Positions 2,459 through 63,840 of a stretch of 64,000 bases of DNA are shown piece after piece (position 1 is the first letter of the stretch; each line of letters begins with the position of its first letter). Below the pieces are notes generated by a model that made no database searches, was not told where the DNA came from, and saw only the letters and a list, made by a program, of their open reading frames with translations. A program made the position numbers and the translations under genes. This DNA is from Escherichia phage Ec_MI-02. The stretch is taken from sequence record OP856590.1. One strand, written 5' to 3'.

Positions 2459-4275
2459 TACTGGCTCATCCATTCTTTACGAAGGTCAGCATTATCTCCC
2501 ATGAGCATTTCAAAAAGCTCTTTCCAATTCTCAGGAAGTTTAACAACATCATATACCGGGTTTTGAATCATCTCACGATATTCAGATTTTTCCAAAGAGC
2601 CAAGTCCCTTAATATAACGGATGCTATGTTTAGGTAGAGCATCTTTGGCACTCTCATATTCAGCGACTGTATAAAACCATTCTTGTTTTTTACCGACCTG
2701 AGCGATGATTACAGGAGTTTTGACGAAACGAATTCTTCCTTGTTCAAACAGTTCTGGCCAATTACTAAAAAATCCGAGCAGAGAAGGATAAATGCTTCCT
2801 AGACCATCGTGGTCAGCATCGGTCATAATAGCAATATTATGATAATTCAAGTTTTCGGCTTTTTCACCAAGAACTAATCCAGTGATTGCGCAAATATCAA
2901 ACAGTTCTTTGTTTTTAAGCATATCAGCATATGACATACCCCAACTGTTGAGAACTTTACCACGTAATGGATAACCACCGTGAAGTTCTTTATCACGAAC
3001 ATCAATAAGATATCCGATAGCAGAATCACCCTCAGTCAAGAAAAGAGTCGTGTCAGCATCTTTACCACAAAGATTCGCTTTAATATGTTTATGAACCTTA
3101 GCTTTAGAGGCCTTTTTAGCTGCTTTAGTTTCTGCTGCTTTTTCTGCTGCCAATTTACGAGCCAAGGCAGCTTCAATAATTGGCATTAAAATTGCTTCAT
3201 TGTTTAAAATAGCGCGTGAAATCTTTTTAGCATCAAGCTGAATATGACTACGAATTTCACCAAATGGAGAAGTCAAACGCTCTTTAGTCTGAGCATCAAA
3301 TCGCATGTTTTTCATATCACGAACAAACATAACGATAGTCAAACATTCTTTAACACGTGCTTTAGTTACATCAATTTTGAACTTACGTTTGATTTGTGGA
3401 ATAAGGTCTTCACAAATATCATCCATAACACAGTCAATGTGATGACCACCATTCTTAGTATGAATGTTATTGACGTATGTTAATTGACGAAAACCATCCG
3501 GTGAACGACCAACCGCAATAGAACAATTTTCTTGTTCTTGAACAATAGCATGCTCATCATATTGGCGTGCATATTTCTTAAAATTACCCTGAACCTTTTT
3601 ACCGTTAAAGGTAAATTGAATATCAGGATAAACTACTGCAAGTGTCTGGAGACGATCTAGTGTAATGTCAAGATAAACCTGAGATAGCTCATTAGTTTCA
3701 AATGACATAAAATCAGGAATGAAAGTAACACGAGTTCCTTTCCATTTTCCAGGAATATCTTCCCATGATTTATTTTCCATGCCATTTGAACAACGAACTA
3801 CAATATTATTTTGACCGTCGCCAGTTTCACCGACAAACATTACAGAAAAAATGTTAGTTAAACTAGAACCAACACCGTTCATACCGCCAGTGACGCGTTC
3901 TTTATCATCACCGAAGTTACCACCTGCTTTTGGAATAGTCCAGGCAGCAACAGGACCAGGAATTTCTTCGCCGGTAGGTGTTTTAACCATCGCTTGTGGA
4001 ATACCACGACCGTTATCTTCAACTGTTACTTGATTGTTTTTAATAGTAACATTAATTTTATTCGCGAATTTAAACTTAGTACGAATACCTTCATCTACTG
4101 AGTTATCGATAATTTCATCAATAAGCTTAACAAGACCAGGTACATACTGAACACTTTCCCATTTACCAAACAGAAAGCGCTCATGCATTTCATTAGCAGA
4201 AGAGCCAATATACATGCCGCTACGCTTTTTGATATGTTCAATATCGCTCAGAATTTTAATTTCATTCTTAATCAT
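2458..4275 (-). CDS. 39: DNA topoisomerase II large subunit, fused gp39+gp60 (605 aa)
   Basis: GyrB-like ATPase start MIKNEIKILSDIEHIKKRSGMYIGSS; continuous ORF; track start at 4278 is GTG, ATG one codon later. Confidence 0.9.
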   Translation of the reverse strand: MIKNEIKILSDIEHIKKRSGMYIGSSANEMHERFLFGKWESVQYVPGLVKLIDEIIDNSVDEGIRTKFKFANKINVTIKNNQVTVEDNGRGIPQAMVKTPTGEEIPGPVAAWTIPKAGGNFGDDKERVTGGMNGVGSSLTNIFSVMFVGETGDGQNNIVVRCSNGMENKSWEDIPGKWKGTRVTFIPDFMSFETNELSQVYLDITLDRLQTLAVVYPDIQFTFNGKKVQGNFKKYARQYDEHAIVQEQENCSIAVGRSPDGFRQLTYVNNIHTKNGGHHIDCVMDDICEDLIPQIKRKFKIDVTKARVKECLTIVMFVRDMKNMRFDAQTKERLTSPFGEIRSHIQLDAKKISRAILNNEAILMPIIEAALARKLAAEKAAETKAAKKASKAKVHKHIKANLCGKDADTTLFLTEGDSAIGYLIDVRDKELHGGYPLRGKVLNSWGMSYADMLKNKELFDICAITGLVLGEKAENLNYHNIAIMTDADHDGLGSIYPSLLGFFSNWPELFEQGRIRFVKTPVIIAQVGKKQEWFYTVAEYESAKDALPKHSIRYIKGLGSLEKSEYREMIQNPVYDVVKLPENWKELFEMLMGDNADLRKEWMSQ

Positions 4276-58724: not shown

Positions 58725-58933
58725 AACCATGTAACCTTTAAGCAATATTCTTCTACATGTTGTTTACGACCTTTCTTATCAATAAAGGTATATTCAACGA
58801 ATGTTCCAATATAGTCTTTATCTACATCATGTGGACTATTAATTGGGCATTTAGTACGGCAAATGCGTTCCCATTGACGAATAATTTCCACTTTGTTTTT
58901 AGGATCAAACGGATGCGGGTAATGTACTTTCAT
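58721..58933 (-). CDS. hypothetical protein (70 aa)
   Basis: ATG. Confidence 0.45.
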   Translation of the reverse strand: MKVHYPHPFDPKNKVEIIRQWERICRTKCPINSPHDVDKDYIGTFVEYTFIDKKGRKQHVEEYCLKVTWL

Positions 58934-59384
58934 AATCCACCACTATTAAATCAATATCAGGAGTAAACATGTCAATTAATTTAGAAACCTTATCCCAATC
59001 ACCACCAGCAATACCGCAACCTATGCGTGGAATGTAAATTACTGGTTTAAACAAAAGGGTTTCTGCCTGTAGATTTAATTCTATCATGCAATTTACTAAA
59101 GCACCATAATCAAGATTAGGACCCGGTTCGTATTGCGTATACAAATTATAGCACATACTAAATCCTGTAGGATTATGTTTAAAAACAATAGACATATCGC
59201 CTAATTTATCACGAGAACCGTACTCGGTAGTGGTTTTATCTATTTCTAAAATTTTGGGATAGGCTCTTGCTAATTGACCCGCTACGCCAGAGCCCATTGT
59301 GTGGAAGCAATTGCACCCGTGCGCAATAATATTACCTTGAAGAAATAGGGCGACAATATCGCCCTTGATATATTTTACAATCAT
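58905..59384 (-). CDS. macro-domain protein (159 aa), predicted ADP-ribose binding/hydrolase
   Basis: macro motif IAHGCNCFHTMGSGVAGQLA and C-terminal GCGIAGGDW. Confidence 0.65.
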   Translation of the reverse strand: MIVKYIKGDIVALFLQGNIIAHGCNCFHTMGSGVAGQLARAYPKILEIDKTTTEYGSRDKLGDMSIVFKHNPTGFSMCYNLYTQYEPGPNLDYGALVNCMIELNLQAETLLFKPVIYIPRIGCGIAGGDWDKVSKLIDMFTPDIDLIVVDYESTLPASV

Positions 59385-60273: not shown

Positions 60274-60735
60274 TCATTGAGTTTTAATTACTGCTTTAGA
60301 AGCCTTTCCTGGTAAACGACGACTGTTGATAATTGCCATCCTGCATTGAAGCGACGGGTCTTTGAACTTTGCATTAGGTTTACAAACTGTAAATCCAAGC
60401 CAAAGATTTCCATCTGTGATTTCTAAACGCCCAGGACGATATTCAACCCCATCAATAAAATCCTCGTCAATGTCAGGACGCGGAGGCATACTCAGGAATT
60501 CATTAACTTCTAAAACATGGTCTTTTATTTTGTGGAATAATTCAAAAACATATGTCTCATCAATCTCCCGTTGAATTGCACGATCAAGAAGATGCTGAGA
60601 ATATTTTAGATGAAACGATGAGACCCCTGCTGCTTTTGATGCCTCACGAATCTCATTGTTAATTTGACGAAACTCCGACTCAAAGTGACGACGAAGCTTA
60701 TTTCGACGGATAAAAACTTCTGTGTTGATAGTCAT
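60274..60735 (-). CDS. regB: RegB endoribonuclease (153 aa)
   Basis: 153 aa; position upstream of vs block; early promoter with perfect TATAAT upstream. Confidence 0.8.
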   Translation of the reverse strand: MTINTEVFIRRNKLRRHFESEFRQINNEIREASKAAGVSSFHLKYSQHLLDRAIQREIDETYVFELFHKIKDHVLEVNEFLSMPPRPDIDEDFIDGVEYRPGRLEITDGNLWLGFTVCKPNAKFKDPSLQCRMAIINSRRLPGKASKAVIKTQ

Positions 60736-60762: not shown

Positions 60763-60792
60763 ATTATACCACAGTCAAGAGGAAAAGTAAAC
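60763..60792 (-). promoter_or_regulatory. T4 early-type promoter for regB
   Basis: GTTTAC-N18-TATAAT. Confidence 0.6.
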
Positions 60793-60794
60793 AG

Positions 60795-61073
60795 TTATTC
60801 TTTAAATCTAATCAATTTATTCATAGACTTTGAAACTTCTGCACGGACCTCATGCAGGTTTTTAAGCTGTTCAAGACGTTGCTCATAGTAAGCAATTTCA
60901 TCTTCTTCAAGACAGTCCTGTGAATCTTCTTTAAGATAACGCGCATAGTCCTGGAAAGCTTTACGGACTACTTCTTGGAAGTCATCAAGACTTTGAATTT
61001 TCTTAGGAGCAACAGATACACGACGAGGGGCAGTATAATACTCATAACCAAACCCTGCGCTTAATTGAGCCAT
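60795..61073 (-). CDS. hypothetical protein (92 aa)
   Basis: track start GTG; [11 protein letters not shown] with TAATG coupling. Confidence 0.5.
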
Positions 61074-61339
61074 TAATATTTTTCCTCTGGTTGGAACACA
61101 GCACGACAAGCCCACATACTGGCTTCTTTGAGTTTCGTTTTAGCAATAGTTAACTGATCGAGGCTTTCAGCATAATTCTTCGCGAATTCACAGTCTTCAC
61201 AATTATCTAGTGCTTCCCAAAATTCATCGTATAAAGCGTCAAAGATAAGTCCTAAACGAACTTCAGCATCTTTGATAGCATTCACTTTACCGATTTTCTC
61301 TTCAGTATGTGGCTTATAACCTTTAATATCTTCAATCAT
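61073..61339 (-). CDS. small helical protein (88 aa), vs.4-position candidate
   Basis: trimmed to ATG (GAGGAAG SD, ATGATTGA overlap); fourth ORF above vs counting regB. Confidence 0.45.
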
Positions 61340-61553
61340 ATTTGACTTCCTCACCAGTACATAAATCATATTCAACTAAACGAATAGGTTCATGAATGCC
61401 ATATCCTTGAACAGAAATTTCTGTCGTAGGATAAATTCCATCAATATCACCCATGGTCCATGCTTCATTAAATTGCTGTTCGCCTGAATTACTAAACCAC
61501 TCGGCGAAAGCATTTAACACATCTTTAGAACCTTCAATAATTATCTTTGCCAT
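61332..61553 (-). CDS. hypothetical protein (73 aa)
   Basis: ATG; TAATG coupling. Confidence 0.5.
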   Translation of the reverse strand: MAKIIIEGSKDVLNAFAEWFSNSGEQQFNEAWTMGDIDGIYPTTEISVQGYGIHEPIRLVEYDLCTGEEVKYD

Positions 61554-61915
61554 TACAAGCTCTCAGTAAAGGTACGAGCGATAACGTCGCGCTGCTGTTC
61601 CGGAGTCAGAGAGTTAAAGCGAACTGCATAACCGGATACACGGATGGTCAGCTGCGGATATTTTTCCGGATGCTTAACTGCATCTTCCAGAGTTTCACGA
61701 CGCAGAACGTTAACGTTCAGGTGTTGACCACCTTCAATTTTAACTGTAGGATGTGATTCAATTTCAATTTCACGGGTGTGCAAACCGTAGAAAATTTCTG
61801 GGTCTACAAAAGAGTCCTCTTTAAAGGTTTTAGAAACAATAATTCGTGCTTGAATACCATCTTCAAAATAAATAGTACCTTTATGTGTGCCTTCAAGAAT
61901 TTGATATGCTTTCAT
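61553..61915 (-). CDS. autonomous glycyl radical cofactor GrcA/YfiD-like (120 aa)
   Basis: C-terminal [24 protein letters not shown] glycyl-radical signature. Confidence 0.7.
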
Positions 61916-61921
61916 ATAACC

Positions 61922-62251
61922 TCAATTAGAAAATAAATTTATCCAAGACTGTTCTTTAATTAAAAATGGCTCAGAATCATATGCCATTAAACTTTGGGTG
62001 ATTAGTCCTTTAAAAGGTCCATCAATAAATTCCATGGTAAAATATGGAATTTTATTCATTAATCTTGCATTAGGAGCAGTACACAAAACTCTGCATCCTT
62101 TGAATACACCTTTTTGTAATTTGTATTGCTTAGGATAAAATTCGCTCAAGACATTATTATTTGCCAAAATTTCAAAATGATTCACCAATTTATTTTTAAT
62201 AGTTTTTGGCGAAAAATAAAGATATTCGAAAAGCTGTGTGTCTGTCATCAT
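61922..62251 (-). CDS. hypothetical protein (109 aa)
   Basis: track ORF trimmed to ATG with ATGA coupling. Confidence 0.5.
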   Translation of the reverse strand: MMTDTQLFEYLYFSPKTIKNKLVNHFEILANNNVLSEFYPKQYKLQKGVFKGCRVLCTAPNARLMNKIPYFTMEFIDGPFKGLITQSLMAYDSEPFLIKEQSWINLFSN

Positions 62252-62835
62252 TGCATTCCGATCACAAAAAATTGAGGACGAGTAATACCACCGGTGCAAC
62301 ATTTACTATTGCAACAGTATTGTACAGTTTCAATATGAATATCGTAAATTTTATCCATATCGGGAGATTTAACAGGCTCATCGATTATATACAAAATCCG
62401 CGAAAGCGATAAACCTCTGAACTTGCTGCCTCTATTACCGATAAAACTACGGACAGAATCAGTAAATAAACGAAAACGTATATCATCACTAGAATAACGA
62501 GAAAATTCTTTTTTAATGTGGCCTGCAGAAATTTTAGCGTAAGCTGAAGTATTAGAAAGAACAATAACTGTTCCACCGTCATACAGCCAATTAGCAGCAA
62601 AGTTAGTCACAGCAGTTGATTTACCAGATTGGCGTCCACCATCTAGTCGAAGTGTACAATATTGTTTAAGCAAGTCTTCAAATGGTGGAATATAATCGTT
62701 TTTACAAATTTCTTCTACTCTAGCATCAGAATGGTGTGTAAAAGCATTCATCAGGGATAGATAAGGACCAGTTAAAAATGTTCTCATTTTATTCTCTCTA
62801 AATTTGGGCCATTCCATGGCGCATGAATTGTCCAT
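62248..62835 (-). CDS. P-loop NTPase-like protein (195 aa or 179 aa from second ATG)
   Basis: Walker A GGRQSGKST; start ambiguous (62835 or 62787). Confidence 0.55.
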   Translation of the reverse strand: MDNSCAMEWPKFRENKMRTFLTGPYLSLMNAFTHHSDARVEEICKNDYIPPFEDLLKQYCTLRLDGGRQSGKSTAVTNFAANWLYDGGTVIVLSNTSAYAKISAGHIKKEFSRYSSDDIRFRLFTDSVRSFIGNRGSKFRGLSLSRILYIIDEPVKSPDMDKIYDIHIETVQYCCNSKCCTGGITRPQFFVIGMQ

Positions 62836-62940
62836 TTCTGTATTTACCCATTACCGCACTTGGGCTCGACCTTATTACAGGTTGGCGGGAATCCCTCATA
62901 GAATCATGAGGTCCAGCTTGTTCCCATATTTCTTATTTGC

Positions 62941-63414
62941 TTATTTGAATGATTTGACGTACTGAATAGAGCCTTTGCTATTCACGAAAGCGATTTTACC
63001 ATTTTTGTTATACATGGTAGCAGTACGCTGATAACCATAAGTTTGTTTACCAGATTGATAACCAACTAATGCGAAATTATCTTCACCCATTTTATTCTGC
63101 TTAGCGCGGATACGTTCATGACCGTGTGCCATAAGAACCTTAGCGTCGCCAGTTGCAATGGATCTACGAGTTTTTTCATCTTCAACTGTATTAACAAAAT
63201 CGTCAAATGAATCAAATTTAGCATGAGATTTATTATACAGTTTTCCATCTACTGCATAATTATATCCCTGTACATCCATCTCAACTTCTGTACCATCATC
63301 CAATACAGCAGTGATTTTTTGACCTTTTTTAAATTTCAAAAGATCAGTAAAAGATTCAGCGATAATTTGAGAATTAATAGCTGCTTCAGTGATAAATTCT
63401 TGATATGTTTTCAT
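62941..63414 (-). CDS. internal-protein-like protein with capsid targeting sequence (157 aa)
   Basis: N-terminus MKTYQEFITEA matches the T4 internal protein CTS; basic protein. Confidence 0.6.
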   Translation of the reverse strand: MKTYQEFITEAAINSQIIAESFTDLLKFKKGQKITAVLDDGTEVEMDVQGYNYAVDGKLYNKSHAKFDSFDDFVNTVEDEKTRRSIATGDAKVLMAHGHERIRAKQNKMGEDNFALVGYQSGKQTYGYQRTATMYNKNGKIAFVNSKGSIQYVKSFK

Positions 63415-63423
63415 GTGTTTCCT

Positions 63424-63840
63424 TTAAATGTAAATAGTTTTACCGTAGTATTTATACCAGTATGGCTTCATTAAAATTTTTTCATCGAGTCGTTGTTGAC
63501 TCAACTTAATAGCTGATTTGCATGGATTATAATCATTTTTCCATTCTGCTGGAATATCGCTGATGTCAGGAACTTCAGTATCTTTTATACTAAACCCACG
63601 TTTTAAGCATTCCGTTATAATGTCTGATTGACGCTTTCGCAAAAATTCTAACTTATCGTAAAAGAACGTGACATGACCAGAACCTAAAATAAACTCGGAA
63701 GATATTTTAAAATCTTTAACCCGCTTACCATTTGCAACATGTTTACGAACTATACCAAAAACACGCGGCAGTTCACGGTATTCTGCGATTAAATGTTGAT
63801 CAGCAAGTTCAGATACTAAAGTCAAATTAATACGAGTCAT
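63424..63840 (-). CDS. denV: endonuclease V (pyrimidine dimer DNA glycosylase, 138 aa)
   Basis: 138 aa; [17 protein letters not shown] start; ATG confirmed. Confidence 0.9.

Follow-up and report, generated by a model that had tools for sequence, protein, structure and literature searches.

In phage T4, the functions of Vs.4, Vs.3 and Vs.6, three products of the early vs.3-vs.8 gene block, have previously been characterised. T4 Vs.4 (Acb2) binds 3'3'-cyclic GMP-AMP (3'3'-cGAMP) with a Kd of ~30 nM according to Jenson et al. (PMC10097602), and of ~84 nM for cGAMP as measured for T4-Acb2 by Cao et al. (PMC10312549). Its hexamer holds three cGAMP molecules at dimer interfaces, with Y8 and F82 providing base stacking and Y8, H11, K23 and R79 the polar contacts (PMC10097602). 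Mutants of the pocket (Y8, F82) or of the interface (L29, A66, A73, A77) fail to inhibit the CapV effector, and deletion of vs.4 lowers the titre of T4 ~50-fold on a host that carries CBASS (antiphage signalling based on cyclic oligonucleotides) without Cap2 activity (PMC10097602). T4 Vs.3, in turn, is TadIV-1, which inhibits type IV Thoeris (Chen et al., Nat Commun 2026, PMC13243611). T4 Y06I and YfiD/GrcA of E. coli are the two proteins validated as a "spare part" for pyruvate formate-lyase, restoring the enzyme after its cleavage by oxygen (PMC8683613). Here, we describe the corresponding region of Escherichia phage Ec_MI-02 (record OP856590.1), analysed within a stretch of 64,000 nucleotides (hereafter, the window). 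Positions 60795-62835 of the window almost certainly (probability of roughly 95%) hold the ordinary vs.3-vs.8 block of early genes found in a phage of the T4 type (Tequatrovirus, pSs-1-like), in which vs.4 encodes Acb2 and vs.3 TadIV-1.

The window belongs to a Tequatrovirus: over 3.7 kb around the block, it shares 99.8% nucleotide identity with Shigella phage pSs-1 and 97-98% with hundreds of other T4-type phages. The region is filled by six minus-strand open reading frames (ORFs) that overlap minimally or not at all, with regB on one side and an internal-virion-protein gene on the other; every gene of the region lies on the minus strand. All six ORFs have strong PHROG family matches (E 2.7e-40 to 2.7e-79) and encode proteins with 89-100% amino acid identity to the products of the T4 and RB32 genes named vs.3-vs.8; they are therefore real genes rather than chance ORFs. 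The names vs.3 to vs.8 appear in the same order beside regB in the records of T4, RB32 and RB68. An earlier reading made from the letters of the DNA alone (the sequence-only reading) had matched the six ORFs to T4 vs.3 to vs.8 by number and position; this was borne out, and the correspondence extends beyond matching position to orthology at the level of sequence. The same reading had counted 61073-61339 as the fourth ORF, which needs correcting: counting from regB it comes second, and in the order of transcription fifth. Gene starts were chosen from the RefSeq annotation of pSs-1 in combination with homologue alignments and ribosome-binding sites.

The vs.4 gene (61073-61339, minus strand) encodes a protein of 88 amino acids that is identical at 88 of 88 residues (100%) to T4 Vs.4, as crystallised with cGAMP (PDB 7UQ2 chain A, E 1.9e-57). 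The protein passes the Pfam model PF24729 (Acb2_Tad1_hairpin) with 71.4 bits, where the gathering cut-off is 27 (E 7.1e-20), aligns to all of its 58 positions (1-58) and falls into PHROG 717 (E 2.3e-32), the family by which Jenson et al. defined Vs.4 homologues (PMC10097602). The position-based suggestion that 61073-61339 is a Vs.4/Acb2 gene, which allowed for the possibility of no detectable similarity to that family, is therefore upheld by full identity. Vs.4 retains Y8, H11, T12, K23, L29, F33, L60, A66, A73, S74, A77, R79 and F82, that is, residues involved in ligand binding or the hexamer interface, or recovered as screen hits. Within this set, the cyclic-dinucleotide pocket is preserved in full (Y8 and F82 for stacking; H11, K23 and R79 as polar residues), as are the hexamerisation-interface residues L29, F33, A66, A73 and A77, with the hexamer in this phage being a prediction from sequence. 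None of the binding residues varies among six homologues that represent five genera. At the nucleotide level, vs.4 differs from its T4 counterpart at 12 positions, and as all 12 differences are synonymous, we read them as a clear sign of purifying selection. The ORF is intact from ATG to stop and is preceded by a GAGGA ribosome-binding site. These features identify the vs.4 product as Acb2, with a predicted role as a hexameric 3'3'-cGAMP sponge with anti-CBASS activity. It encodes the same protein as T4 vs.4/acb2, occupies the same position between vs.3 and vs.5 and departs from it by synonymous nucleotide changes alone. The Acb2 of Pseudomonas phage PaMx33 is more distant (24% identity), and the ligand spectrum of T4-type Acb2 is narrower.

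We infer that Vs.4 acts in this phage and its host as it does in T4. A Vs.4 hexamer would sequester three molecules of 3'3'-cGAMP (or of other cyclic dinucleotides) at its dimer interfaces; the signal made by the host CD-NTase would thus be kept from the CBASS effector, and the infected cell would be spared self-killing. T4-Acb2 binds cyclic dinucleotides and does not bind the trinucleotide cA3 (Cao et al., PMC10312549), and the window protein is expected to do likewise.

A second type of vs.4 allele is found in RB68 (locus L010, 4647-4928). Here, residues 1-33 and 66-88 are as in the window, a central segment of ~32 residues is replaced by one that is longer by five residues, and vs.3 and vs.5 on either side are 97-98% identical. 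Across 1231 phage records, the identities of vs.4 matches (tblastn) were bimodal, at either >=90% or 60-80%. In T4-Acb2, Y37, A57, L60, D61 and T64 have been proposed to block the cA3 pocket seen in the Acb2 of PaMx33 (Cao et al., PMC10312549). Since the segment swapped in the RB68-type allele covers all of these residues, the two allele types may differ in their ligand range.

Immediately downstream of vs.4, the vs.3 gene (60795-61073, minus strand) encodes a 92-residue protein identical to T4 Vs.3 at 90 of 92 positions (98%), the two substitutions being N38K and T64E. A search of PDB sequences matched it to 9WIW, the TadIV-1 of UPEC07 (E 4.9e-38). T4 TadIV-1 is a dimeric sponge for N7-cyclic ADP-ribose (N7-cADPR; KD ~216 nM) that blocks activation of the caspase-like effector, and deletion of vs.3 sensitises T4 to type IV Thoeris (PMC13243611). 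Among TadIV-1 homologues, long forms (>80, ~90 residues) are active and short forms of ~70 residues inactive, the pocket being formed by a flexible N-terminal loop; the binding mode was derived from modelling and mutagenesis, with no member having a ligand-bound structure, and mutagenesis of the T4 protein showed R17, R18 and K24 to be important (PMC13243611). We place the start of vs.3 at the ATG at 61073, rather than at the GTG at 61115 that opens the longest ORF. This yields the 92-residue long form, as annotated in pSs-1, T4 and RB32. The window protein keeps R17, R18 and K24, and both N38K and T64E lie outside the residues shown to matter: E64 is also the aligned residue of UPEC07, and position 38 is K here and Q in UPEC07. 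The long form, the N-terminal loop with R17/R18/K24 and the position beside regB are all common to window Vs.3 and T4 TadIV-1.

Vs.3 is accordingly TadIV-1 in its functional long form, a predicted sponge for the N7-cADPR of type IV Thoeris, and by analogy it would act in this phage and host as in T4. As a dimer, it would use the flexible N-terminal loop (R17, R18, K24) to sequester the N7-cADPR that the TIR protein of type IV Thoeris produces, preventing activation of the caspase-like effector. The adjacent vs.3 and vs.4 genes would then encode two unrelated sponges for immune signals.

The third gene with a counterpart of described function is vs.6 (61553-61915, minus strand; 120 residues, 97-98% identical to T4), which encodes a GrcA/YfiD-like protein. 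Its Gly_radical domain (Pfam PF01228, E 2.3e-18, 67.1 bits against a cut-off of 22.2) contains an RVSGY motif at residues 92-96, with G95 read from the sequence as the radical glycine. The last 185 nt of the gene (nt 179-363; 61553-61737 on the minus strand of the window) match grcA by blastn at 98.9% identity in each of 5426 complete E. coli genomes; the 5' half, encoding the ~59 N-terminal residues, has no DNA match in the same genomes. vs.6 is therefore a phage/host chimera with a host-derived 3' half, and not a strict GrcA equivalog. Together with a local rise in G+C to 0.417 at the 3' half, this structure is consistent with recent capture of host DNA. The equation of Y06I with vs.6 rests on vs.6 being the T4 gene annotated as GrcA and on a match in size (~14 kDa). 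With E. coli GrcA (YfiD) and T4 Y06I, Vs.6 shares the C-terminal RVSGY glycyl-radical domain, while its ~59 N-terminal residues are phage-specific. As shown for its counterparts, the GrcA-like glycyl-radical module of Vs.6 would restore host pyruvate formate-lyase that has been cleaved by oxygen. Both this T4 glycyl-radical spare part and the TadIV-1 sponge encoded by vs.3 had been missed by the sequence-only reading, while its Acb2 finding is correct and was already known from T4.

The gene at the upstream end of the block, vs.8 (62248-62787, minus strand), encodes a protein of 179 residues with a Walker A motif (D49-GGRQSGK-S57) and a Walker B motif (ILYIIDE), both invariant in 18 homologues. 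With Walker A conforming to GxxxxGK[ST], Walker B to hhhhDE (h, hydrophobic) and a RecA-like alpha/beta fold, Vs.8 has the features of a P-loop (ASCE) NTPase, and we predict it to be a stand-alone, single-domain ASCE/RecA-like P-loop ATPase. A P-loop protein had indeed been proposed at 62248-62835; the P-loop stands, but the start at 62835 gives way to the ATG at 62787. This methionine opens all 18 aligned Vs.8 homologues, has a GAGAG Shine-Dalgarno sequence 6 nt upstream of it and is the start given for pSs-1 by RefSeq. Over the conserved 179 residues, identity to T4 is 93%, compared to 89% for the longest ORF. The ATPase domain most akin to Vs.8 is the RecA1-like domain of large terminases and SF2 (superfamily 2) helicases (e.g. 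the N-domain of T4 gp17, 2O0H), at 8-17% identity. Unlike these enzymes, Vs.8 has no nuclease, second RecA or nucleic-acid-binding domain; it is not a terminase, nor does it amount to a complete helicase. Specifically, a large-terminase assignment was rejected, as Vs.8 is a single domain of 179 residues compared to ~400-600 for terminases, and the PHROG_2 match covers only positions 278-382 of 807. The Vs.8 family is confined to T4-like phages.

The remaining two genes are vs.5 (61332-61553, minus strand; 73 residues, 97% identical to T4) and vs.7 (61922-62251, minus strand; 109 residues, 98% identical to T4). Vs.5 is 97-99% identical to its T4 and RB32 counterparts and belongs to PHROG 1986 (E 2.8e-43), with no match in Pfam, NCBIfam or PADLOC. 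Its sole match among PDB sequences, to SurE (1L5X, E 0.0084), is sub-significant and was treated as chance. In the T4 RefSeq record NC_000866 (locus L004, 4382-4558), vs.5 is annotated with 58 residues and ends 36 nt before vs.4, while in a resequenced T4 clone, as in the window, it encodes 73 residues and overlaps vs.4. In tblastn, residues 15-73 of window Vs.5 align to the T4 reference beyond the annotated stop. These observations suggest a frameshift discrepancy in the old T4 reference at vs.5. Vs.7 is 98-99% identical to the T4 and RB32 proteins and belongs to PHROG 2049 (E 4.6e-54). Its start was set at 62251, the start of the longest ORF lying too far upstream. Homologues of Vs.7 carry a precomputed PF26834 match, and searches with Vs.7 itself in Pfam, NCBIfam, PADLOC and PDB brought up nothing informative. 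Its AlphaFold2 model, built from an alignment of three full-length sequences, had a predicted local distance difference test score of 43 and was unusable.

Vs.5, Vs.7 and Vs.8 are small, conserved, early-type and non-structural, and they belong to no known family; their genes accompany acb2 in several genera of Tevenvirinae. One or more of them might be a further counter-defence factor, making the block, with two immune-signal sponges already among its six genes, a compact anti-defence island; we regard this as a tentative idea that is rather unlikely to be correct. Candidate roles may include another small oligomeric sponge or, alternatively, an ATPase antagonising a host system. When each of Vs.3-Vs.8 was assayed singly against type IV Thoeris, only Vs.3 scored (PMC13243611).

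The six genes are tightly packed, with intergenic gaps of <=6 nt throughout. vs.8 and vs.7 share an ATGA overlap, vs.7 and vs.6 are separated by a 6-nt gap containing GAGG, vs.6 and vs.5 share a TAATG overlap, vs.5 and vs.4 overlap by 8 nt, with the GAGGA Shine-Dalgarno sequence serving vs.4, and vs.4 and vs.3 again share a TAATG overlap, the vs.3 ATG lying over the vs.4 stop. Such packing is typical of translational coupling, and by this arrangement a single unit of expression would run from upstream of vs.8 to the regB promoter. Between the vs.3 stop, which it directly follows, and regB lies a promoter-like site of the sigma-70/T4-early type (60763-60791, minus strand; TTTACT-17-TATAAT with an extended TG, matching 10/12 positions in a consensus scan), followed by the regB ribosome-binding site with GGAG; this putative promoter marks the 3' end of the vs block. 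The downstream boundary is regB itself (60274-60735, minus strand), encoding an endoribonuclease 99% identical to T4 RegB (Pfam PF10715 REGB_T4, E 1.4e-68; PDB 2HX6, E 1e-99).

At the other end, a conserved leader (62788-62925, minus strand) precedes vs.8. Hardly any of these ~140 nt differ between T4, RB32 and the window despite a different upstream gene, denV in T4 and an Ip4-type gene here. The leader presumably carries the vs.8 promoter; Chen et al. expressed Vs.3-Vs.8 from "the promoter of vs.8" (PMC13243611). It also holds a 33-residue ORF (62798-62899), which T4 RefSeq fuses in frame to vs.8 as a 40-residue N-terminal extension, giving a Vs.8 of 219 residues; in the window and in RB32, the leader ORF is out of frame with vs.8. 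A structured RNA in the leader was considered and rejected, with no Rfam match at E<=1 and a fold z-score of -0.3 relative to shuffled sequences.

Comparison of gene orders places the block in a wider context. The order regB-vs.3-vs.4-vs.5-vs.6-vs.7-vs.8 is common to T4, T2, RB68 and the window. In Merlin (Moonvirus), EcS1 (Kagamiyamavirus) and Gravdalen (Winklervirus), the order is regB-vs.4-vs.5-vs.7-vs.8-denV, at 32-62% identity, with vs.3 not detectable and vs.6 absent in these three phages. The conserved core is thus vs.4-vs.5-vs.7-vs.8, to which vs.3 and vs.6 were added later. Related roles for the uncharacterised core genes would be compatible with this pattern. In Cronobacter phage leB, vs.6 and vs.4 lie side by side in a different neighbourhood.

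Could the block nevertheless be something other than a standard vs.3-vs.8 block with a working Acb2 sponge? A coincidental agreement with T4 in gene number and position, by six unrelated genes of a hyperplastic region, might be entertained given the plasticity at the edges, where the internal-protein arrangement is unlike that of T4 and tk.4 is only 58% identical, but the idea is refuted by the 89-100% identity of all six proteins to their T4 namesakes, and we discard it outright. A decayed vs.4, leaving the phage without a working sponge, has precedent in close relatives: in a T2 record (PV648364; locus L009, 4204-4464), a 2-nt deletion leads to a stop at vs.4 codon 8, with loss of Y8. This fits the Panoptes study, which remarks on a disrupting mutation in T2 Acb2 and on selection by Panoptes for the loss of acb2 (PMC12657218). 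The window gene, however, is intact, retains its GAGGA site and encodes the same protein as the functional T4 gene, with Y8 and F82 in place; with none of its 12 substitutions relative to T4 altering the protein, decay is refuted at the sequence level and seems extremely improbable. The same T2 record also has a fragmented vs.8 (region 2849-3151) and no denV.

A further alternative holds that vs.4, vs.5, vs.7 and vs.8 constitute one multi-protein counter-defence machine, with Vs.8, Vs.5 and Vs.7 working together with Acb2. The four genes keep both their adjacency and their order across Tequatrovirus, Moonvirus, Kagamiyamavirus and Winklervirus in spite of their divergence, vs.3 and vs.6 come and go around this core, and the genes are translationally coupled. 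Yet Vs.4 alone is enough for cGAMP binding, for blocking the activation of CapV and for setting off Panoptes (PMC10097602, PMC12657218), just as Vs.3 alone suffices against type IV Thoeris (PMC13243611); phage leB has vs.4 without vs.5, vs.7 and vs.8; and, synteny being general among the early regions of T4-type phages, a shared gene order is a weak argument for joint function. We consider such a machine improbable, if less so than decay of vs.4. The preferred reading, an ordinary vs.3-vs.8 block of a T4-type phage, is itself not free of difficulties. It accounts mechanistically for only half of the block, with Vs.5, Vs.7 and Vs.8 falling outside it. Vs.6 stays below the cut-off of the NCBIfam GrcA equivalog model TIGR04365 (154.7 versus 170 bits, residues 20-120 matched), because its N-terminal half is phage-specific. 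A sigma-70 consensus scan upstream of vs.8 gave no convincing site for the block promoter. Finally, an intact vs.4 would not be purely beneficial: T4 Acb2 is both required and sufficient for setting off the Panoptes (OptSE) guard, by stealing its decoy nucleotide (Sullivan et al., PMC12657218), and because it sets off OptSE, the gene would also be a liability on Panoptes hosts. None of our searches returned anything that contradicts the identification of the block.

Variation is evident on either side of the block. Upstream, an Ip4-type internal virion protein gene (62941-63414, minus strand; Pfam DUF7412, E 5.7e-96; PHROG 3155) forms the boundary. At this internal-protein locus (62941-63840), it lies between vs.8 and denV in the window, RB32 and RB68, whereas in T4 denV directly follows vs.8. 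The gene is 100% identical to that of T2, 99% to that of RB68 and 99-100% to many others, and has only 31% identity to T4 ipII over 70 residues. In the pSs-1 record, denV is followed directly by a lysozyme gene, without ipII or ipIII. Downstream, the tk.4 gene for a macro-domain "phosphatase" (58905-59384) is only 58% identical to T4 tk.4, while the neighbouring vs, vs.1 and regB genes are 99-100% identical, which indicates that the allele was replaced locally, immediately downstream of the block.

Existing labels for these genes are sparse and partly erroneous. In RefSeq pSs-1 and most relatives, vs.3, vs.4, vs.5, vs.7 and vs.8 are labelled "hypothetical protein". PDB entry 9WIW, the homologue of Vs.3/TadIV-1, was deposited as "Endoribonuclease", and the source name of Vs.7 and Vs.8 homologues is likewise "endoribonuclease". 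A few phage records carry stray labels on the block, including "endoribonuclease (x2)" and "large terminase subunit", as well as "putative pyrimidine dimer DNA glycosylase" over vs.4. These mislabels look like annotation carry-over from the neighbouring regB and denV genes.

The main value of the analysis thus lies in annotation, as Acb2 and TadIV-1 can now be named with confidence. The block raises no new biological question. For users of this phage and its relatives, e.g. as Shigella therapeutics, the genes predict evasion of cGAMP-type CBASS and of type IV Thoeris, together with a predicted sensitivity to Panoptes-type guards that sense Acb2.

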